From an uncultured Bacilli bacterium (GTDB lineage: Bacteria > Bacillota_I > Bacilli_A > RF39 > UBA660), in the NCBI GenBank assembly GCA_947586825.1, contig CANPXU010000001.1, forward strand, positions 11,815 to 75,814: a stretch of 64,000 bases of DNA. The letters are read 5' to 3'. Both the position numbers and the translations under genes were made by a program. This document shows, in pieces, positions 53,793-64,000 of this stretch (its first letter is position 1; every line of letters begins with the position of its first letter). Below the pieces are notes generated by a model that searched no databases, had not been told where the DNA came from, and saw only the letters and a program-made list of their open reading frames with translations.

Positions 53793-54827
53793 CTACTCTT
53801 GTACTAAACAAGTTCCTAAAGTAGCATTAGTTTCACTTAAAAGCATATTAACAAGGTCTAGTGAAGCATCAATAAAATAAGTATTGCCTTGACCTGTTAA
53901 AATATAGTTAACAGTATAATCTTCAGGATTATTTAAACTTAAATTAATTAAATCCTCAATATTAACAGAGTATACTCCGTTGATAGGTGTTGGCTTTTTA
54001 TCCGCTGTCGTAAAAGTATAATAATATTCATATGTATTGTCAGGATATAAATAAAGTACTGGTGTTAAACAATTAAGACCTGAATATTTTAAAGTATAAA
54101 CGTCATCTCTATTTTTAAGATAATCTTCATCATTATTTATAATACTATTAATAAATCTTTCTTCATCGCTAGTTACACTATCTTTATAAAGACGGTTTAC
54201 TTCCCTATTATCATTAAATAATGACTTAATATAATCTACTATTTCAGCATTAGAATCTTTACTAAAATCAAGATTATAAGCTTCTTCAATATCTATTATA
54301 TTTAATTTATCATCTGATAAACTAACCTTTTTAACATGAACTAAATTATTATCTTTTAAATAAATAATATAGTTATTATCTTCATAACTAAGATAAATAC
54401 TATAAATATAGTCCTCTACCGAAGTTATGAATTCTTCTTCATTTTTCTTATTTAAAATATCATCGATAACAAGTGTTTGATAATCATCTAAAGCATTATA
54501 ATCTATATTTATTCTCTTAGATTTATCATCAAAGTTATTATCAATAAACTTAATAAACTTTTGCACAGAATCATATGAATAATTTAAATTATCATCATTT
54601 ACAATAATCTTATCTTGATACACTTTTATAATATCGTCATTAACTTTTATATCATAGACTCCCGAATCTTTATGGGTATTATCTTTTAGAAAATAAATAA
54701 AACCACAGGTTAAAAAGGCTATTAAAAATAACCCTATTATGATAATAATAGCAATCTTTTTCTTAATATCACCTTTCATCTTAACCTCTATTTTATTTTC
54801 TATTAATAGTATACATCTTAATATCAA
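53793..54827 (-). CDS. Hypothetical membrane-anchored N/D/Y-rich protein
   Basis: The ORF gives 344 aa. TM segment IAIIIIIGLFLIAFLTCGFIYFL. The start is probably the internal MKGDIKKK. Confidence 0.45.
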   Translation of the reverse strand: MILRCILLIENKIEVKMKGDIKKKIAIIIIIGLFLIAFLTCGFIYFLKDNTHKDSGVYDIKVNDDIIKVYQDKIIVNDDNLNYSYDSVQKFIKFIDNNFDDKSKRINIDYNALDDYQTLVIDDILNKKNEEEFITSVEDYIYSIYLSYEDNNYIIYLKDNNLVHVKKVSLSDDKLNIIDIEEAYNLDFSKDSNAEIVDYIKSLFNDNREVNRLYKDSVTSDEERFINSIINNDEDYLKNRDDVYTLKYSGLNCLTPVLYLYPDNTYEYYYTFTTADKKPTPINGVYSVNIEDLINLSLNNPEDYTVNYILTGQGNTYFIDASLDLVNMLLSETNATLGTCLVQE

Positions 54828-55196: not shown

Positions 55197-55718
55197 ATGT
55201 TATCAGGTGATGAAATATTAAAACAAATAAAAAAGGGCAACATTAAAATTGATCCCTTTTGTGAAGAGGATATTGAACCAAATAGTTATGTTGTTCATCT
55301 TGCTAATGAACTTTTGGTATATGATAATGATGTCCTAGAGTGCAAAAAGGAAAACACTACGCGTAAAATAACGATTCCTGAAGAGGGCTATATCTTAAGG
55401 CCTGGCGAGTTATACCTAGGTAGAACAGAAGAATATACCGAAACTAATGGTTTTGTTCCTATGCTAAATGGCCGTCTTTCAACAGCAGCTTTAGGTATTA
55501 CGATTCATATTACCGCGGGTTTTGGCGATAATGGCTTCAAAGGTACATGGACTTTAGAAATAATGGTTGTTAAACCAGTAAAGATTTATCCTGGTATGAA
55601 GATTGGTGAATTAAGTTATTTCCCTTTAGTGGGTGATTCTTCTCGCAAATATAAGGGTAAATACTTAGGTCAAAAAGATACTACACCAAGTAGAATCTAT
55701 ACTGACAGAAGTATATAG
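55197..55718 (+). CDS. dcd: dCTP deaminase-family protein, paralog A (catalytic D...E motif retained, GRSS..R motif degenerate)
   Basis: 173 aa. MLSGDEILK.. N-terminus. GRLSTAALGITIHITAGFGDNGFKGTWTLEI, compared with the family pattern GRSS..R.G...H.TA..ID.G..G...LE. Confidence 0.75.
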   Translation: MLSGDEILKQIKKGNIKIDPFCEEDIEPNSYVVHLANELLVYDNDVLECKKENTTRKITIPEEGYILRPGELYLGRTEEYTETNGFVPMLNGRLSTAALGITIHITAGFGDNGFKGTWTLEIMVVKPVKIYPGMKIGELSYFPLVGDSSRKYKGKYLGQKDTTPSRIYTDRSI

Positions 55719-55726
55719 GTATTAAT

Positions 55727-56260
55727 ATGTTATCAGGTGATGAAATAATTAAAGAAGTTGAAAATGGTAATATTATAATTAAACCCTTTGATAAAAAACT
55801 AGTTAATCCTAATAGTTATAATATGACCCTTTCTGACGAGCTTTTAATGTACACAGACGATATTTTAGACTGTGCTAAGGAGAATAGTACTAAAGTAATA
55901 AAAATTCCTGAGGATGGCTTAATTTTAGCTCCAGGGACACTTTATATTGCTAAGACAAATGAAATAACTAAAACAGATAAATATGTTCCATCCATAAGTG
56001 GTCGAAGCTCTATTGGTAGAATAGGTCTTACAGTTCACACTTGTGCAGGTCTTGGAACCGTAGGCTATGAAGGATCTTGGTCTTTAGGCATAACATGTGT
56101 AAGACCTACCAAGATCTATCCTAATATGGAACTTTGTCAAATATATTTCTTTCCTATCGAAGGCAAGATTAATAAAAAGTACATGGGTAGATATCAAAAC
56201 AAAGAAGATATAACACCAAGTAAAAGTTATGAAGATTTTAAAAACTTAAAAAGAGCCTAA
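55727..56260 (+). CDS. dCTP deaminase-family protein, paralog B (GRSS..R motif retained, catalytic D and E replaced)
   Basis: 177 aa. MLSGDEIIK.. N-terminus. GRSSIGRIGLTVHTCAGLGTVGYEGSWSLGI (T for D, G for E). 8-nt gap after paralog A. Confidence 0.7.
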   Translation: MLSGDEIIKEVENGNIIIKPFDKKLVNPNSYNMTLSDELLMYTDDILDCAKENSTKVIKIPEDGLILAPGTLYIAKTNEITKTDKYVPSISGRSSIGRIGLTVHTCAGLGTVGYEGSWSLGITCVRPTKIYPNMELCQIYFFPIEGKINKKYMGRYQNKEDITPSKSYEDFKNLKRA

Positions 56261-56284: not shown

Positions 56285-56575
56285 TTAATTATCTAGTATT
56301 GCTTTCAGCATTTCATTAACATTATTATATCCTTTTCTTTTTCCTTCTTTTATTTCTTGGATAATTCTTTCCCCTTCTTCTAATGATTTTAATAATTCTT
56401 TATTAGGTTTAGGATTAGATACTTTAAATGGTAATCCATCAGCCTTTATTAGTTGCTTTATTGCCATATTAACAAATGTGTTCATATCTAGACCTAACTC
56501 ATTTAAAATATTAGTAGCTTCTTCTTTATCTTTAGTAGCAACTTTTACTTTTATAACACTTGTTAAATTTTTCAT
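56285..56575 (-). CDS. RelB/DinJ-family antitoxin-like protein (no cognate toxin recognised)
   Basis: 96 aa. IKVKVATKDKEEATNILNELGLDMNTFVNMAIKQLIKADGLPFKV matches the DinJ/RelB RHH pattern. Confidence 0.65.
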   Translation of the reverse strand: MKNLTSVIKVKVATKDKEEATNILNELGLDMNTFVNMAIKQLIKADGLPFKVSNPKPNKELLKSLEEGERIIQEIKEGKRKGYNNVNEMLKAILDN

Positions 56576-57696: not shown

Positions 57697-58245
57697 ATGA
57701 AGGAAGAATTACAACAATTTCTAAACAAAATGAAAACCATTGAATATGGTTGGATAGATAAAGATGGTAATAAATATATTAACCATATTGTTAAAAATAA
57801 ATTTTTAACTGATTACTATTTACAAAAGCCAAGTGAAGTATGGAAGAATCGAATAGGCATATGTTGGGATCAAGTTGAAGTAGAAAGAGAATTTCTTACT
57901 AAAAAAGATATACCTTTCAAAAGCTTTTTAATCCTTTATGATGATGGCCTTAAGTTTCCTAATCATACCTTTGTTATTTTCAAATTAGGTAAAGAATATG
58001 GCTGGATAGAAAATACTTATAAAAATGTTAAAGATGAAATAAGATACTACAAGACTTTAAAAGAGGCTTTAGAGAATGTCAAAAAAGAATTTATATCAGA
58101 AAATGATCTACAAATTATTGGTAATAAATTATACTACTTTGCTTATGATAAACCTAAATATGGTATTGGCTATGAAGAGTTTGCTAAACACTGCCAAATG
58201 GGCATTAAAGCAAATGAAGACTTTAAAAACGTTGATACATTTTAA
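57697..58245 (+). CDS. Hypothetical protein, possibly transglutaminase/papain-like fold
   Basis: 182 aa. GICWDQVEVEREFL ... HTFVIF ... WIEN suggests a Cys-His-(Glu/Asp) arrangement. Weak call. Confidence 0.3.
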   Translation: MKEELQQFLNKMKTIEYGWIDKDGNKYINHIVKNKFLTDYYLQKPSEVWKNRIGICWDQVEVEREFLTKKDIPFKSFLILYDDGLKFPNHTFVIFKLGKEYGWIENTYKNVKDEIRYYKTLKEALENVKKEFISENDLQIIGNKLYYFAYDKPKYGIGYEEFAKHCQMGIKANEDFKNVDTF

Positions 58246-58246
58246 G

Positions 58247-58268
58247 AAGGACGAAAGTCCTTTTTTTA
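58247..58268 (+). terminator. Intrinsic terminator
   Basis: AAGGAC-GAAA-GTCCTT followed by a T-run, immediately after the stop at 58245. Confidence 0.6.
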
Positions 58269-58343
58269 TTTGGCAAATAAAAAACCTATCTTTCATTTAA
58301 GAAAAATAGGTTAAATAAAAGGAAAAGGATTTCTCCAAAAAAA

Positions 58344-60137
58344 TTAAATTTCGAATTTCTTTTTAATTGAATATCCTAAGCCTGCAACACCTAATACAGC
58401 GACAGCTCCACCAACTAAGTAAAGAGGTAGACTATCTAATGTATTTGGATTTCCTTCAGGGTTTTCTTCTGTTTCAGACCCACTTCCTGGAGTTGATTCT
58501 GCAGGTTTATCATCAGGTTTAGTAGGCTGATTTTCTGGAGTATCAGGAACAACTGGAACGTCATTACCCTCATAGAATACTAATATTGTTGTATCAGCAT
58601 TAAATTTAGTATCTTCTTCAGATATTGCTTTTCCATTTACAGCAAAATACATAAATTTTCTATCTGAAGCTGTTTTAATAGCTTCAAGTTTTTCTAGGTC
58701 TTCTCCGGTTAAATCGCTTAATGATGTACCAGGATTAACCCAGATTTCATAATTACCAATACTTAATATTACATAATATGTAGCATGTATTTTTGTATTT
58801 TCAGCAAATGCAGAAGAATCAACTAGTTTTACTTCCTTTGTATCATAATAGTTATTAATATGTTGACCTTCTACATCTAACATTGCATCTAATTTAGCTT
58901 TACCAGTTTCAGATAATTCTCCAAAAGTTTGACCTTTAAATAGGCTTACTTTATCGTCTTTACCATCAACAGTTAAAGTGACAAACCAAATTGCCTCATC
59001 AGATTTACTAGCCACTTTTACAACGTGAGTAGAATCAGGAGTAGTAACACCTATTTCATTTTCTGTATAGTTGTAAACTCTAATGACACCATCACCAGTA
59101 TTAGTACCAACTTCTACAGTTTTATCATCATCTAAAGTATATACATAATACTTATTATCAACATGAACAACGCCTGTTAATCCAGATGCAGGAGCATCAA
59201 ATGATCCATTAGCAAATTGTCCTACATTTAGCTTAACATTATTTCCACTACCAGTAGCAACTGTTAATTTAGCAGCGGTATAAGGAACAGTAACAGTTCC
59301 AGCATTTAAAGTAGCATTTCCTGTAAGAGCTAGGCCTGAACCGGTAACACCGATATCCCCATCTGACCCATTATTATTACTAGTAACAACAGCATTATCA
59401 CTTATAGTACCACTAGTAAAAATTCCTGAATATTTGTTATTTACTACAGTTATTTTAGCATTATCTTCAGCAGTTAAGCCATTAGCTGTAGTTAAACCAC
59501 GATCGTTATCATGAGAATAATATTCACTATTTTCAGATACAATCATATTTCCAATATTTGCAGCACCAGCACAATTAGAAACTTCTACATTTCCGCCATT
59601 TTTAATGACAACAGCATTAGTACGTAAAGCGGTGTGTCCATACCCAGAAATAGAAACCTTTCCACCATCTACTTCAAGAGTACCTTCGTTAGTATTCCAT
59701 CCTTTTTCGCTTCTCTTACTAATAGCAATAGTATTTCCGCCAGAAGTCCTAGCATCTAACTCACCTGTAACAACTAATTTAGCATTAGTATCCAGCAAAA
59801 CATTAATAAGTTTGTTATTTTGAATATCACCAGAACCTGTAACGTATGCATCAGCATCTTCTCTAACCGCAAAGTTAGTTAAAGTTAATTTTCCAGATAC
59901 TGTTAGCGTTTGACTACTATCAACAACAATTCTTCTATTGTCTACAGTAATATTTTCATCAAGATCAAAATTACCAGTAACTTTAATAACACGTGCAAAG
60001 CTATCAGTTAAACAGTCTTTGAAATCACTTTTATTAGCTGCGGTACAAACGCCACCATTTACGTTTGCAGCATTAACACCAGCTACTGCTACACATGAAG
60101 CAAGCATGCCCGTCAAAAATAATTTTAAATTTTTCAT
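58344..60137 (-). CDS. Variable surface protein 1 (beta-helix-like G/N/T/V-rich passenger; signal peptide; conserved C-terminal anchor)
   Basis: 597 aa. MKNLKLFLTGMLASCVAVAGVNA-A signal peptide. P/E/T-rich stalk. C-terminus NPNTLDSLPLYLVGGAVAVLGVAGLGYSIKKKFEI. Confidence 0.7.
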   Translation of the reverse strand: MKNLKLFLTGMLASCVAVAGVNAANVNGGVCTAANKSDFKDCLTDSFARVIKVTGNFDLDENITVDNRRIVVDSSQTLTVSGKLTLTNFAVREDADAYVTGSGDIQNNKLINVLLDTNAKLVVTGELDARTSGGNTIAISKRSEKGWNTNEGTLEVDGGKVSISGYGHTALRTNAVVIKNGGNVEVSNCAGAANIGNMIVSENSEYYSHDNDRGLTTANGLTAEDNAKITVVNNKYSGIFTSGTISDNAVVTSNNNGSDGDIGVTGSGLALTGNATLNAGTVTVPYTAAKLTVATGSGNNVKLNVGQFANGSFDAPASGLTGVVHVDNKYYVYTLDDDKTVEVGTNTGDGVIRVYNYTENEIGVTTPDSTHVVKVASKSDEAIWFVTLTVDGKDDKVSLFKGQTFGELSETGKAKLDAMLDVEGQHINNYYDTKEVKLVDSSAFAENTKIHATYYVILSIGNYEIWVNPGTSLSDLTGEDLEKLEAIKTASDRKFMYFAVNGKAISEEDTKFNADTTILVFYEGNDVPVVPDTPENQPTKPDDKPAESTPGSGSETEENPEGNPNTLDSLPLYLVGGAVAVLGVAGLGYSIKKKFEI

Positions 60138-60203
60138 TTTATCATTCTTCCTTTCTTAAAATATTTTTTGGAACGTATCCTCCTTCCTTTATTTTATAAG
60201 TCC

Positions 60204-60234
60204 ATTATATATATATATATATATATATTGTCAA
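60204..60234 (-). promoter_or_regulatory. Promoter of surface gene 1: TTGACA - 19-nt (AT)n spacer - TATAAT
   Basis: Plus strand has ATTATA at 60204-60209 and TGTCAA at 60229-60234. The spacer 60210-60228 is entirely alternating A/T. Confidence 0.65.
60206..60228. repeat. (TA)n microsatellite, 23-nt uninterrupted alternating run
   Basis: Counted directly from the sequence. Confidence 0.9.
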
Positions 60235-60293
60235 GGGTTTTGGAAGCTTATTGGAGTAAATAAAATCATCTATAACATTTATATTCTTTAACA

Positions 60294-60325
60294 CAAAAAA
60301 ATCCCATTTTCTATTAGAAAATGGG
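60294..60325 (-). terminator. Intrinsic terminator of surface gene 2
   Basis: CCCATTTTC-TATTA-GAAAATGGG (60303-60325), followed on the minus strand by ATTTTTTT. Confidence 0.7.
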
Positions 60326-60358
60326 TTTAATAAAAGGAAAAGGATTACCTATAAAATA

Positions 60359-61795
60359 TTAATTTTCAAATTTCTTTTTAATTGAATAACCTAAAGCTAC
60401 TAATCCAGTACAAGCAATAGCACTTAATATTAAATAACTACCAATACTATCTACTGTATCAGGGTTAGATGTAGTTCCAGCATTTGCTTGATCTTCATAT
60501 GCAAGTGCATAGGTAGAGAACTTGTCAGTAGCAAAGCTTAATTCTGTTCCATCTTCAGATAATACTGTTTTAAGAACTTCAACTTTACCATCATGTTCTC
60601 TTAAAATATAATATACTCTTGTATAGCCTTCTTTTACTTCAGGTAAATCTTCAGGCACTTTAACTGTAAGAGTAATTTCTTCATCTAATTCATGTAAATT
60701 GCGAATTGTCGTACCAGCTTTTACCAAAACACTAATATCTAAATATTTAGATATTGTTGCGTCAGGTAAAGCATCAGCAAATTCTTTCTTCTTATCATCA
60801 TCTACTGTCGTCTCTTTAGCTTCAAGTACAACAGTTACATCATTGTTTTCTATTAACTCTTTTAATTCTTCATCAGTAGTATTAAGTAATGATTCTTTTA
60901 ATACATCACTTGTTTCAGAATCAGTTGTTACAACGTCATCAGCGCCAGGGATTTCAGGAGTTATTTCTACAGGCTTAACCATAACTTTACCATAGCTATC
61001 AACAATATAACCATCAGGTATAAATGCTGACATATCTTGTGGTTCAGATACAAAAGTCTCTGGATCTTGACGGTCGAATTGACCACCTGTAATAATAGTT
61101 TCAGAGCCAGTGACAGGGGCTACAGTTTGAATTTTTTTGCCAGTCATATCTCTAAATATTCCACCTGTAATATTCATTTTTGCATTTTGGCTATTTACAA
61201 CAGCAGGCATATCAGCTTGATAACTTTGATCAAATTGACCACCACTTATATTAGCTGTACCTGCATTCCATAAGCCATAGTTTTTTTCATATAATGTTGA
61301 AACTCTTCCACCAGAAACGTTAATAGTAGCTCCTGCTAAGTTTCTAATACCATAAACAGACGCAATTTGTGGTGAAATAAATCCGCCTTCTAAATTTAAT
61401 TCGCCATAATTATCAATTATTGCTTGTTGAAGTTGGCTTTCAGGATATGCTTTTGTTCTCGTAATGCTTCCACTTGTACCACTATCTTTAATAGTTAAAG
61501 TACCATTTTTTTCAACTTTAATTGTGGGACAATCTACTTGTAATTTTCCTTCTTCAATAGTGTTATTTAAAGTGTGCCCATTTAAATCAAGAACAACTTT
61601 TTCGCCATCTTTTACCTCTAAGTTAAATTCTGCAGTTTTAAGTAGTTTAATAGTTGTAACTTCGTCATCTTCAGTTACTTCAACAGAATCTTTATAAGGA
61701 TCTTCTTTTAAATCTGTTATAGTAGCAGCATTAACAGTAACAACCATTGCAAACATTGCAATCATAGCCATTGTGAATAATTTTAATTTCTTCAT
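60359..61795 (-). CDS. Variable surface protein 2
   Basis: 478 aa. MKKLKLFTMAMIAMFAMVVTVNA-A signal peptide. C-terminus NPDTVDSIGSYLILSAIACTGLVALGYSIKKKFEN. Confidence 0.7.
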   Translation of the reverse strand: MKKLKLFTMAMIAMFAMVVTVNAATITDLKEDPYKDSVEVTEDDEVTTIKLLKTAEFNLEVKDGEKVVLDLNGHTLNNTIEEGKLQVDCPTIKVEKNGTLTIKDSGTSGSITRTKAYPESQLQQAIIDNYGELNLEGGFISPQIASVYGIRNLAGATINVSGGRVSTLYEKNYGLWNAGTANISGGQFDQSYQADMPAVVNSQNAKMNITGGIFRDMTGKKIQTVAPVTGSETIITGGQFDRQDPETFVSEPQDMSAFIPDGYIVDSYGKVMVKPVEITPEIPGADDVVTTDSETSDVLKESLLNTTDEELKELIENNDVTVVLEAKETTVDDDKKKEFADALPDATISKYLDISVLVKAGTTIRNLHELDEEITLTVKVPEDLPEVKEGYTRVYYILREHDGKVEVLKTVLSEDGTELSFATDKFSTYALAYEDQANAGTTSNPDTVDSIGSYLILSAIACTGLVALGYSIKKKFEN

Positions 61796-61860
61796 ATTTC
61801 TTTCTTCCTTTCTTAAAATAATATTTGGAATGCATCCTCCTTCCTTTATTTTATAAGTCC

Positions 61861-61889
61861 ATTATATATATATATATATATATTGTCAA
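61861..61889 (-). promoter_or_regulatory. Promoter of surface gene 2: TTGACA - 17-nt (AT)n spacer - TATAAT
   Basis: Plus strand has ATTATA at 61861-61866 and TGTCAA at 61884-61889. The spacer is 61867-61883. Confidence 0.7.
61863..61883. repeat. (TA)n microsatellite, 21-nt uninterrupted alternating run
   Basis: Counted directly from the sequence. Confidence 0.9.
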
Positions 61890-61937
61890 GGTTTTTTGGC
61901 TATGTGAGGGACTTATAAAATGTAAACTTTTTGTCAT

Positions 61938-61967
61938 TAAAAATCCCATTTCCAATTAGGAAATGGG
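61938..61967 (-). terminator. Intrinsic terminator of surface gene 3
   Basis: CCCATTTCC-AATTA-GGAAATGGG (61945-61967), followed on the minus strand by ATTTTTAA. Confidence 0.7.
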
Positions 61968-61999
61968 TTTAATAAAAGGAAAAGGATTCAAATCAATCT

Positions 62000-63619
62000 C
62001 TAGTCTTCAAGTTTCTTTTTAATTGAGTAACCTAGTGCTATTAGACTAGCTATTGCTATAGCACCACCTGCTAAATAAACAGGAATGCTATCTAAAGTAT
62101 TAGGTATTTCAGTTTCAGGTTTATTTGACTCAGCAGTAACTTCTTTTAGTCCTGCAATTGCAGTATTAAGTTCCTCGGTTACAGTGTCAATTTCATCTTG
62201 ATGAGCTTTAGATAATTCAGGATCTAATTCATATGCTTTTTCAATAGCAGCAGCTAATGCAGCATATGATTCTTCAGTATAATCAGTTGGATCAATTTCT
62301 ATAGCTTTAGCTAAAGCTTCATCTAATGCAGTATAATCAGCCTTTTCTTCAAAAGCAACTGTTACAGTTACTTCGTTAGCAGGCATTACGAATGTAAGTA
62401 CATTATTAATTCTACTATATTCTACTGCCTTACCATCTTTATCAACTATTGTAATTTCGCCTAGTACATAACCTTCATCAGGTTCTAATGTTACTGTAAC
62501 TGTTTGACCAGTTATAGCATTTTCTTTATCAGCAGTAACCGTACCATTTGTAGGAGCAGTAACTTTTACAAGTGATTCTAATCCAACATAAGTAACTCCA
62601 TTTTCAACATAAGTTTTATAACCTTCTGCTAAATATTCTGAATTAAATGCATATTGATCTATAAATTCTCCACCATAGATGATATTATACAAGTCATCAG
62701 AATGAACTGCCTTATGCATATTGCTCTTTGTTTCAAAGATTCCATCATTAACCTTTACTGATAATGCTTCATAATTTTTAGTACCATCCTTTTTTGTAGG
62801 TATTGCATTTATATGTAAAGCGTCATTATTATTAGCAATAAATGTTCCGCCGTTAAATATCCAATTTCCTTTAGTAATAGGAATTGTTATTCCTGAATTT
62901 GCAGTATAACTTCCGCCTTCAAAAGTTACATAAGTGGTTTTAGTTGGAGCAGTATCCGAATCATCCGCGATAACTGATAATCCTGTATTCCAAGTTCCAT
63001 TTAAGGTTATTTGAACTTGACTAGATACTAATAAACCATGTCCATATGGAACACTTATAACAGTATCATCACTTGTAACTAGTTTTGCAACATTATCTTT
63101 ATCAAGTCCACTAACAGTAATAGCGCTTGAATCTTCTTCTATCTCGTCAGAGTATCCTGCAGTGACATTAATAGTTAATTTAGATGTTTTTAAGGATGCC
63201 CCTTGAAAAACATAAATTGCTGAAAGTCCAGTAGATTCTGATACTATAGTACCATTCTTTAATTCAACGTTAGCTACATCTTCAATAGAAAAGCTATTAT
63301 CATTAGTAAATGTTATTGTGTGACCATTTAAATCTAAAACAATGTCTCCTTCTTTAGCCTCAAGGTCTCCATCGCCATTAAACACAAGGTCTCTATCTAG
63401 AGTAATATTCGATCCGGATTTAAGAATTATATCTTGGCAAGATTTTTTATTATTATTCCATTTGGCAGAAATAGCGGCTTCTAAATCATTTACATTATCA
63501 ACGATGCATTCTTGATCTGCGTTTGCATATGCAGGTCTATCAACAGCTGCTGCACTAACTGCACCAATTGATAATCCCATTGCAAGCATGCTTACAACAA
63601 ATAATTTTAATTTCTTCAT
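62000..63619 (-). CDS. Variable surface protein 3
   Basis: 539 aa. MKKLKLFVVSMLAMGLSIGAVSA-A signal peptide. C-terminus IPNTLDSIPVYLAGGAIAIASLIALGYSIKKKLED. Shares VLDLNGHT with protein 2. Confidence 0.7.
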   Translation of the reverse strand: MKKLKLFVVSMLAMGLSIGAVSAAAVDRPAYANADQECIVDNVNDLEAAISAKWNNNKKSCQDIILKSGSNITLDRDLVFNGDGDLEAKEGDIVLDLNGHTITFTNDNSFSIEDVANVELKNGTIVSESTGLSAIYVFQGASLKTSKLTINVTAGYSDEIEEDSSAITVSGLDKDNVAKLVTSDDTVISVPYGHGLLVSSQVQITLNGTWNTGLSVIADDSDTAPTKTTYVTFEGGSYTANSGITIPITKGNWIFNGGTFIANNNDALHINAIPTKKDGTKNYEALSVKVNDGIFETKSNMHKAVHSDDLYNIIYGGEFIDQYAFNSEYLAEGYKTYVENGVTYVGLESLVKVTAPTNGTVTADKENAITGQTVTVTLEPDEGYVLGEITIVDKDGKAVEYSRINNVLTFVMPANEVTVTVAFEEKADYTALDEALAKAIEIDPTDYTEESYAALAAAIEKAYELDPELSKAHQDEIDTVTEELNTAIAGLKEVTAESNKPETEIPNTLDSIPVYLAGGAIAIASLIALGYSIKKKLED

Positions 63620-63686
63620 ATTATCAATCTCCCTTTCTTAAAATATTTGTTTGGAAAATATCCTCCTTCCTTTATTTTATAAGTCC

Positions 63687-63717
63687 ATTATATATATATA
63701 TATATATATAAAGTCAA
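63687..63717 (-). promoter_or_regulatory. Promoter of surface gene 3: TTGACT - 19-nt (AT)n-containing spacer - TATAAT
   Basis: Plus strand has ATTATA at 63687-63692 and AGTCAA at 63712-63717. The spacer is 63693-63711. Confidence 0.6.
63689..63710. repeat. (TA)n microsatellite, 22-nt uninterrupted alternating run
   Basis: Counted directly from the sequence. Confidence 0.9.
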
Positions 63718-63797
63718 GGGTTTCAAAAGCATTTTCCTATATAAAATTAGACATAAAAAAGCCACTTTTTGGCATAAAAATGGCTTTAAATAAATTT

Positions 63798-64000
63798 CTA
63801 AATTTTTTCACAATTCACTTCGTTCTTATAAATTATATTAACATAGCCACTATAAGTCCTAGCCCATACCTCATCATTCATAATAAATATCTCTAAAGCA
63901 TCAAATAAAGTACCTGTTCTATAAAAGGCTGGAGCTAAAGGATTAGTACTTGTCGCATTCTTTTGTCCATCTTTAGTTAAACATTCTACCCTTTTTTGAG
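63798..64000 (-). CDS. 3' end of an unidentified gene entering from the right edge (partial)
   Basis: Not in the ORF track because the start is off-window. The minus-strand frame from 63998 reads QKRVECLTKDGQKNATSTNPLAPAFYRTGTLFDALEIFIMNDEVWARTYSGYVNIIYKNEVNCEKI* with stop TAG at 63800-63798. A hairpin AAAGCCATTTTT..AAAAAGTGGCTTT follows. Confidence 0.5.
   Translation of the reverse strand, partial: QKRVECLTKDGQKNATSTNPLAPAFYRTGTLFDALEIFIMNDEVWARTYSGYVNIIYKNEVNCEKI

Follow-up and report, generated by a model that had tools for sequence, protein, structure and literature searches.

Surface-protein genes with (TA)n promoter spacers, probable phase-variable cassettes, in an uncultured gut Bacilli bacterium

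A stretch of 64,000 nucleotides from an uncultured Bacilli bacterium (GTDB lineage RF39, UBA660; contig CANPXU010000001.1, positions 11,815 to 75,814), here called the window, carries three tandem genes for predicted surface proteins, g1, g2, and g3. Each gene has its own promoter in which the −35 and −10 elements are separated by a run of TA dinucleotides, (TA)n, and n differs between genomes that are otherwise identical. We conclude that g1, g2, and g3 are probably TA-switched surface-protein cassettes, that is, genes subject to phase variation through the length of the promoter spacer. The genes are complete open reading frames (ORFs).

58344 to 60137, minus strand: g1, 597 amino acids (aa)
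60359 to 61795, minus strand: g2, 478 aa
62000 to 63619, minus strand: g3, 539 aa

RESULTS

Promoters with a (TA)n spacer

On the coding strand, the 5′ region of each gene reads TTGAC(A/T)-(TA)n-TATAAT-GGACTTATAAAATAAAGGAAGGAGGAT...AAGAAAGGAAGA...ATG, with the TA tract forming the spacer between a consensus −35 element and a consensus −10 element. Spacer length equals 2n − 3 bp and therefore reaches 17 bp at n = 10 alone; n = 8, 9, and 11 give 13, 15, and 19 bp, respectively. The three promoters are as follows.

63687 to 63717, minus strand: g3 promoter; −35 TTGACT at 63717 to 63712; −10 TATAAT at 63692 to 63687; (TA)11 at 63689 to 63710; spacer of 19 bp, T(TA)9
61861 to 61889, minus strand: g2 promoter; −35 TTGACA at 61889 to 61884; −10 TATAAT at 61866 to 61861; (TA)10 at 61863 to 61882; spacer of 17 bp
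60204 to 60234, minus strand: g1 promoter; −35 TTGACA at 60234 to 60229; −10 TATAAT at 60209 to 60204; (TA)11 at 60206 to 60227; spacer of 19 bp

From their spacers, the g2 promoter is predicted to be ON and the g1 and g3 promoters OFF or weak. A promoter scan of positions 58000 to 64000 that allowed spacers of 16 to 18 bp returned a single promoter with a 12/12 consensus match, that of g2, and missed those of g1 and g3 because their 19-bp spacers exceed the allowed range. The 1.196-Mb genome assembly contains four (TA)n tracts with n of at least 6, and three of the four are the g1, g2, and g3 promoters. The fourth, a (TA)8 at G000:C1:4371-4387 (G000 being the genome of the window), lies upstream of the start of the window and has no TTGACA or TATAAT around it.

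Two other species representatives have cassettes with the tract at the same position; the protein cores there are only 50 to 73% identical to those in the window. The promoter layout is likewise the same in the sister genome G018, in G021 (metagenome-assembled genome [MAG] Lapin-022 bin33), and in ENA contigs, and a pattern search found the promoter block in 3 of 22 species representatives of the genus. An inverted repeat brackets the g2 promoter only (61848 to 61921; TTTTATAAGTCC ... GGACTTATAAAA), with 21-nt arms that are 32 nt apart and 86% complementary, including 12 nt exact, and it is absent from the g2 ortholog in G018. An invertible promoter of the fimS or Bacteroides type was considered and rejected: the repeat is not conserved, a single orientation is found in all assemblies, and the locus has no recombinase gene.

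Tract length in otherwise identical genomes

Tract lengths were compared across consensus assemblies of metagenome bins or contigs, some of them at ~2.6 to 6× coverage. ENA contigs of the same clone differ from the window by 0 to 1 mismatches over 3.4 to 4.8 kb. In these contigs, g2 has nine TA units in ERZ27060014 and ERZ27249433 and ten, as in the window, in ERZ27249236 (L032). The g3 tract is n = 9 in ERZ27249236 and n = 11 in the window, with 0 mismatches over 4.8 kb, and a deletion upstream of g1 in the same assembly takes the −35 box and most of the tract.

Comparison with G021 revealed a block of 4,346 bp (59401 to 63746) with 0 substitutions, the two sides of which differ by 3.8% and 7.7%. 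At the substitution rate of the flanks, the probability of 0 mismatches in the block is ~1e-85. The block points to a recent transfer between lineages. Inside the block, g2 goes from 10 to 11 units and g1 from 11 to 8 in G021, and g3 carries a 26-bp deletion; there are no other differences. The deletion lies at ~63086 (window numbering) and frameshifts g3, such that the G021 product (G021:C17) is truncated at 174 aa.

Three ENA assemblies of a sister clone, which have 0 substitutions among them over 11.5 to 14.8 kb, carry the g2 ortholog with n = 10, with n = 9, and with a ~34-bp deletion that spans the −35 box and most of the tract (ERZ27249158, L049). In total, about 30 kb of clonal comparisons yielded at least seven length changes and two promoter deletions versus at most one substitution. 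If one decayed copy with n = 5 and the two promoter deletions are set aside, n is 8 to 11 in every promoter measured, never more than two units away from the one value predicted to be permissive. Never more than one gene per assembly is at n = 10, and that gene is always g2 or the g2 ortholog.

The two deletions (~34 to 47 bp; upstream of g1 in L032 and of the g2 ortholog in L049) are independent and show short microhomology. Both spare the −10 box and the gene itself, and both resemble alleles locked OFF. The ends of several contigs coincide with tracts, and two contigs begin or end inside one, a pattern that hints at mixed lengths but is only suggestive. We conclude that repeat number varies between otherwise identical genomes, as hypermutability predicts.

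Conserved ends and divergent cores

The genes were compared as terminator-to-terminator units (2015, 1645, and 1846 bp) taken from an assembly of 1.196 Mb that is 82% complete. When unit was compared with unit by BLASTN, the only DNA in common was a 5′ block of 124 to 142 bp (88.7 to 90.3% identity) and a 3′ block of 77 to 166 bp (71 to 86% identity). The proteins are 21 to 24% identical pairwise. Two exact matches mark the blocks: the 31-nt sequence TAATGGACTTATAAAATAAAGGAAGGAGGAT and, within the 3′ block, the 18-nt sequence AATCCTTTTCCTTTTATT occur in g1, g2, and g3 and have 0 further occurrences in the assembly. Each gene has its own promoter, Shine-Dalgarno sequence (SD), ATG, signal peptide, stop codon, anchor, and terminator. 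The 3′ features are as follows.

61945 to 61988, minus strand: g3 3′ block AATCCTTTTCCTTTTATT (61971 to 61988) and terminator hairpin CCCATTTCC-N5-GGAAATGGG with T-run (61967 to 61945)
60303 to 60346, minus strand: g2 3′ block (60329 to 60346) and terminator hairpin (60325 to 60303)
58283 to 58331, minus strand: g1 3′ block (58314 to 58331) and diverged terminator hairpin (58312 to 58283)

A first-pass annotation of the window had described five nearly identical elements around cores with little similarity and had proposed a pairwise alignment to delimit them. The alignment does give conserved ends and divergent middles. The promoter and 5′ untranslated region (UTR) are indeed near-identical, with the 31-nt sequence exact in all three loci, and the shared 3′ UTR block is real and unique to these genes in the assembly. 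The signal peptide MK(K/N)LKLF..A|A is near-identical as protein, but its DNA is 72 to 75% identical over the first 75 nt. Near-identity of the last ~30 codons was overstated: the last 36 codons have 69 to 71% DNA identity, and the description holds only for about the last 11, encoding GYSIKKK(F/L)E. The hairpin pattern given for the terminators fits g3 and g2 but not g1, in which a hairpin at the same position, AACCTATTTTTC-N6-GAAAGATAGGTT, keeps its stem through compensatory changes. The cores share as little as was claimed, and the VLDLNGHT motif common to g2 and g3 is real and belongs to a repeat family; profile comparison finds the two proteins homologous over the first ~110 residues, including DLNGHT, and undetectably so beyond.

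Uniform divergence across flanks and cores, the sign of ordinary old paralogs, is not what comparison with G018 shows. Protein identity between the two genomes is 82 to 89% for housekeeping genes flanking the array, 73% for the g2 core, and 50% for the g3 head; the 5′ DNA block is 78 to 86% identical. Because flank identity within the genome (79 to 86%) is not above that between species (78 to 86%), there is no sign of concerted evolution. We conclude that divergence is non-uniform along the cassettes.

Heads and stalks of the encoded proteins

All three proteins have type I signal peptides (..VNA|A or VSA|A) without a lipobox Cys. Their domains, in which TM denotes a transmembrane segment, are as follows.

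g1: signal peptide; G/N/T/V-rich head; repeat domain at ~360 to 525; NPNTLDS + TM + KKKFEI
g2: signal peptide; predicted beta-solenoid head at ~30 to 290; stalk at ~295 to 440; NPDTVDS + TM + KKKFEN
g3: signal peptide; predicted beta-solenoid head; Flg_new_2 (InlB B-repeat); helical FIVAR-like stalk; IPNTLDS + TM + KKKLED

Alignment-based AF2 models (pLDDT of 83.1 for g2 and 82.9 for g3) predict two parts, a regular, solenoid-like head made entirely of beta structure and, after it, a distinct stalk. The g2 stalk is modeled as a helix/beta-sandwich module and is common to many paralogs; the g3 stalk matches Pfam PF18998 at 1.5e-11, with a subthreshold FIVAR match. When g1, g2, and g3 were searched against Pfam and NCBIfam, Flg_new_2 in g3 was the sole family name returned, and no Pfam beta-helix family matched any of the three. 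Two sister cassettes do give weak Beta_helix or Pectate_lyase_5 matches (PF13229/PF20585). Foldseek searches of the PDB with the g2 and g3 models gave no significant match. The best folds were right-handed parallel beta-helices (phage tailspikes, lyases, and the Hap adhesin) with E values of 1e-3 to 1e-2 and low TM scores; top matches for g3 were tailspike beta-helices (E of at least 4.6e-3), and g2 gave weak tailspike and IFTase matches. Beta-helix-like heads in g2 and g3 are plausible on the basis of these models.

No homolog of g2, of 205 found, has a name. A search of 5.8 billion proteins gave 2 relatives of g1, and one of 1.84 billion cluster representatives gave 23. Only 3 to 4 of the 23 align with the g1 head, and most match the repeat domain at 360 to 525; the g1 head appears to be almost an orphan.

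C-terminal anchor and sortases

The C terminus of each protein is tripartite, in the form of a sorting signal: a motif, NP(N/D)T(L/V)D(S/N) (IPNTLDS in g3), a stretch of ~22 hydrophobic residues, and a basic KKK tail. Among 41 homologs, the P, T, and D of the motif are each at least 90% conserved. Class B sortases act on substrates with NPQTN or NPKTG motifs, as in IsdC. Like those substrates, g1, g2, and g3 combine an NPxTx motif with a hydrophobic segment and a basic tail, and the genome encodes TIGR03064-like sortases; unlike them, they carry NPxT(L/V)D and match no NCBIfam anchor model. We know of no described sorting-motif variant of the form NPxT(L/V)D.

Five sortase-domain genes (PF04203) are present in the genome. 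Three are class-B-like by TIGR03064, one scoring 169 bits, above the cutoff of 153.75, and two scoring 152 and 150 bits, just below it. A SrtB gene adjoins the cassettes in G018 and lies inside the array, at its end, in an ENA contig of the sister lineage. The genome also encodes an EPSP-synthase/MurA-family homolog (PF00275). Taken together, these features suggest that g1, g2, and g3 are anchored by sortase, although the C terminus could simply be a membrane anchor.

Array size and mosaic relatives

The slot that holds the array is constant, running from a 276-aa gene beside an AMP-ligase gene to a 182-aa gene beside NUDIX and GNAT genes. It contains three cassettes in the window and, on one 29.8-kb contig of the sister lineage, seven cassettes plus SrtB. 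The further family members and chimeras that the first-pass annotation had anticipated in relatives were found there. Gene G018_635 joins a g3-type head (50% identity) to a g2-type stalk (77%), the g2-type stalk of G018_509 (82%) carries a different head, and G018_437 has another head on a g2-type stalk (51%) and a nonrepetitive 17-bp promoter spacer. The head of g2 is orthologous to that of G018_477 (76%), but its stalk and anchor are 82% and 85% identical to those of G018_509 versus 73% and 67% for G018_477. Likewise, G021_402 lacks the 5′ block and has a g1-type 3′ block at 95% identity, and the 3′ blocks of G021_402, G021_533, and g1 are 86 to 95% identical despite unrelated cores.

A fourth family member is found in the genome of the window (G000:C17:6139-7410; 423 aa), with a g2-type stalk (46%) and the anchor TPNTVDH + TM + KRKD. 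It is convergent with a class-B-like sortase gene (the pair spans G000:C17:6139-8400). In the sister lineage, the same pair sits within the array; in the genome of the window, some of the array has thus apparently been relocated.

Silent cassettes had also been suggested, and none was found in the 82%-complete assembly, which holds no extra copy of either flank. Moreover, no exchange of core segments was found within clones in the three clonal comparisons; mosaicism is seen between species only. The proposal of an antigenically variable surface family thus stands in part: the genes do form a family of variable surface proteins whose ends are conserved and whose cores diverge fast, but the short-range variation is in (TA)n and not in the cores. 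Similarly, mosaic modules between species fit the idea that flanks are substrates for recombination or gene conversion; the lack of donor copies and of core differences in clonal sets does not. We conclude that recombination shapes the family over evolutionary time as a slower and secondary process, that programmed gene conversion is not supported, and that, because the short-range variation is in the promoter tract, the flanks are conserved mainly as functional modules for switching, export, and anchoring.

The 5′ leader and its upstream SD-like element

The leaders of the three genes contain a strong SD-like element upstream of the working SD.

63620 to 63686, minus strand: g3 5′ UTR; upstream SD-like GGAAGGAGGA at 63670 to 63661; working SD AAGGGAG
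61796 to 61860, minus strand: g2 5′ UTR; GGAAGGAGGA at 61844 to 61835
60138 to 60203, minus strand: g1 5′ UTR; GGAAGGAGGA at 60187 to 60178

The element GGAAGGAGGA lies ~15 nt past the predicted transcription start and ~45 nt ahead of the ATG. It had been called unused, and no conserved start codon follows it in g1, g2, or g3. An upstream ORF behind it was rejected, as an ATG is present in g2 alone, where it touches the SD and is out of frame. Relatives without the longer leader, namely a 384-aa cassette (L049:5357-6511), G018_437 (G018:C29), and the fourth member (G000:C17:6139-7410), use GGAAGGAG as the working SD, 7 to 8 nt before the ATG. Because the same element is a working SD in those relatives, an insertion of ~40 nt seems to have produced the long leader and left the old SD stranded. 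The 384-aa cassette keeps TTGACA-(TA)5-TATAAT with a 7-bp spacer, and its switch is presumably dead.

A ribosome-binding site near the 5′ end could stabilize an mRNA, as does the STAB-SD of cryIIIA, given the 5′-exonucleolytic decay of RNA in Firmicutes. By that analogy, the upstream element is possibly a 5′ mRNA stabilizer. A riboswitch or structured leader was dropped from consideration, as an Rfam scan of positions 58000 to 64000 at E ≤ 1 returned no family and the fold of the 5′ UTR is no better than that of shuffled sequence (z of +0.5 to −1.3; a weak hairpin, not significant). A search of JGI metagenomes with the 22-nt core of the UTR returned one unrelated chance match, an ordinary SD.

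Neighboring genes and a homopolymer element

Near the array, a minus-strand gene (53793 to 54827) encodes a 344-aa membrane-anchored protein that is 38% identical to its positional ortholog in G018, versus 82 to 89% for its neighbors, and appears to be another fast-evolving surface gene. Two tandem dCTP-deaminase-like paralogs of 173 and 177 aa occupy 55197 to 56260 on the plus strand. After them, on the minus strand (56285 to 56575), comes a gene resembling RelB-family antitoxins, for which a partner toxin gene is not obvious.

Outside the window, the genome contains ~19 copies of an intergenic element of ~170 nt that includes a very long homopolymer. Read on the coding strand, the element consists of ACGTAAATTGACA, a hairpin CAAGATTTT..AAAATCTTG, T(16-33), a conserved segment of ~50 nt, and TGTCAATTTACAC-GGAGG-N4-ATG. 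Sites include G000:C2:12033, C4:21118, C6:49996, C8:32201, C15:4334, C15:26231, C26:16294, C27:14775, C33:8808, and C37:5483. At least 12 genes have the element immediately upstream; they encode exported or N-terminally anchored proteins that resemble one another at the N terminus. Eight contigs end in a poly(T) tract. The element may represent a second contingency family, of the homopolymer type seen in the Vlp system of Mycoplasma hyorhinis, and with its poly(T)16-33 may be a closer analog of Vlp than the TA cassettes are.

DISCUSSION

The proposed switch and the points against it

In our reading, every gene of the array is a complete unit of transcription, independent of the others, and encodes a predicted cell-surface protein in which a stalk carries a variable, beta-solenoid-like head. 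Service modules surround each passenger: the (TA)n promoter, the conserved 5′ UTR, a type I signal peptide, a sortase-type signal, and an intrinsic terminator. In the mechanism that we propose, slipped-strand mispairing would shift n by one unit (2 bp) per step, and n = 10 alone would give the 17-bp spacing needed by a sigma-A-type polymerase; promoters at n = 8, 9, or 11 would be silent or weak. Each gene would switch separately, such that a clone would be a mixture of cells with different combinations of proteins. In the longer term, the repeated flanks and shared stalks would permit homologous recombination, with cassettes gained or lost and with heads, stalks, and ends reassorted among genes and lineages. 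The benefit may be escape from host immunoglobulin A (IgA) or from phages that use the proteins as receptors.

Several points weigh against this proposal. The assignment of n = 10 to ON and of other lengths to OFF is drawn solely from spacer arithmetic, and a transcriptional effect of tract length would follow from the same reasoning. In longer tracts, an internal TATATA could serve as a weak −10 element at a shifted position, and the effect may then be graded rather than binary. Two assemblies, G021 and ERZ27249158, have no cassette at n = 10. The tract lengths are consensus values of assemblies. Single-unit differences could include stutter of the polymerase chain reaction or assembly error at low coverage; changes of two to three units and deletions are unlikely to be artifacts. 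The identical block shared with G021 could be a strain switch during assembly, as all genomes are metagenome bins. Finally, searches of g1, g2, and g3 with the NCBIfam and Pfam models for LPXTG anchors gave no match at E ≤ 1.

Alternative explanations

We consider it unlikely that the three genes are ordinary tandem paralogs, with ends under purifying selection and a TA tract that is a neutral or misassembled AT-rich spacer without a regulatory role. Flank identity is the same within the genome as between species, as purifying selection would give; dinucleotide repeats are error-prone in Illumina assemblies of low coverage (2.6 to 6×); and the evidence for a regulatory role comes so far from sequence. 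The tract nevertheless sits exactly between perfect hexamers in every copy, and it remains a pure repeat in three species in which the cores are at 50 to 73%. Because G018_437 has a nonrepetitive 17-bp spacer, the repeat is dispensable for promoter function. Stutter does not account for multiunit changes (11 to 8 and 11 to 9) or for recurrent promoter deletions, and spacers of 13 to 19 bp cannot all be neutral for a sigma-70-type promoter. An origin of the repeats, the identical block, and the tract differences in binning or assembly, through strain mixing or collapse at repeats, is very improbable. All sequences are from MAGs or metagenomes, contigs do break at tracts, and the right border of the identical block (63747) adjoins the repeated g3 promoter. 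Against such an origin, the three-gene order was recovered independently in at least five assemblies from different samples and the seven-cassette array is contiguous on its 29.8-kb contig. Moreover, De Bruijn assemblers need reads that carry changes in TA units or microhomology deletions and cannot invent them.

Programmed antigenic variation, in which flanks would mediate frequent gene conversion or cassette exchange of the kind known from pilE/pilS or vlsE, could account for the mosaic modules between species, for the difference between three and seven cassettes, for a 4.3-kb identical block in a diverged background, and for neighboring cassettes that have unrelated cores and share 3′ blocks (86 to 95%). 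We nonetheless regard it as quite unlikely. Unlike pilE/pilS and vlsE, the array has no expression site with silent, promoterless donors, and the three copies of either flank in the assembly all belong to full genes with terminators. About 30 kb of clonal comparisons show changes in TA tracts and small deletions only, with no exchange of cores or other segments; the identical stretches are short (31 nt exact and ~130 bp at ~90%), which suits occasional recombination and not a dedicated conversion system; and no recombinase gene is in the locus. A further possibility, about which we are doubtful, extends the TA switch rather than replacing it: the array may be an integrase-free plug-in system in which the 5′ and 3′ modules act as portable homology arms, such that heads are captured or swapped between lineages and each newcomer comes under its own stochastic switch. 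This idea fits the cassettes because the 4.3-kb block has zero substitutions between lineages that are 4 to 8% apart on either side, and because one slot holds three or seven cassettes with discordant genealogies of heads, stalks, and flanks.

Comparison with known systems

Phase variation of the surface-protein cassettes by (TA)n would have precedents. Vmm of M. mycoides is controlled by (TA)n in the promoter spacer through dinucleotide insertions and deletions (PMC2628566, PMC10502178), in M. capricolum, TA tracts lie 5′ of contingency genes for surface proteins (PMC2996958, citing Wise 2006), and pili of H. influenzae are controlled by TA repeats in the overlapping hifA/hifB promoters (PMC13192263). 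In its anatomy, the array matches promoter-spacer phase variation of the Vmm/Vmc or hif type. As in Vmm and Vmc, (TA)n is the −35/−10 spacer of each gene's own promoter, the clustered genes share a conserved 5′ flank and signal peptide but encode mature surface proteins that diverge, the genomes are small, low in GC, and within GTDB class Bacilli, and switching is independent and expression combinatorial, the last being predicted from sequence for g1, g2, and g3. Unlike Vmm and Vmc, the g1, g2, and g3 products are not lipoproteins, as they have a type I signal peptide and a sortase-type signal in a host with sortases and a PF00275 homolog. Their heads are large predicted beta-solenoids and not short repeat-rich peptides, the 3′ end (anchor, 18-nt block, and terminator) is a conserved module as well, and the host is an uncultured, walled, ~1.2-Mb commensal of the rabbit gut.

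At hifA/hifB, too, TA repeats between −35 and −10 alter spacing and transcription level (PMC13192263), but there they lie in one bidirectional promoter pair of a Gram-negative bacterium with three expression levels and chaperone-usher pili. The Vlp system of Mycoplasma hyorhinis is likewise a multigene surface family with a hypermutable promoter tract per gene, combinatorial expression, and conserved 5′ regions (PMC10502178). It differs in having a poly(A) homopolymer tract, lipoproteins, and size variation that arises from repeats in the coding sequence.

Implications

Phase variation by promoter microsatellites is textbook knowledge for mycoplasmas and a few Gram-negative pathogens. To our knowledge, it has hardly been described for walled commensal gut Firmicutes or Bacilli, and we know of no case in uncultured lineages with small genomes. 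What is new is an undescribed protein family; the kind of switch is already known.

In natural populations, the switch sequence, along with small deletions, varies among otherwise identical clones, and the cassettes would thereby bring contingency loci to a gut commensal. The unannotated, predicted beta-solenoid surface proteins are likely targets of host IgA or phage. Moreover, which surface genes are on cannot be read from a single consensus MAG, and the tracts are points at which assemblies break. If heads are indeed exchanged between lineages as portable cassettes and the poly(T) element is indeed a second contingency family, walled gut Bacilli with small genomes would use mycoplasma-style contingency genes genome-wide.

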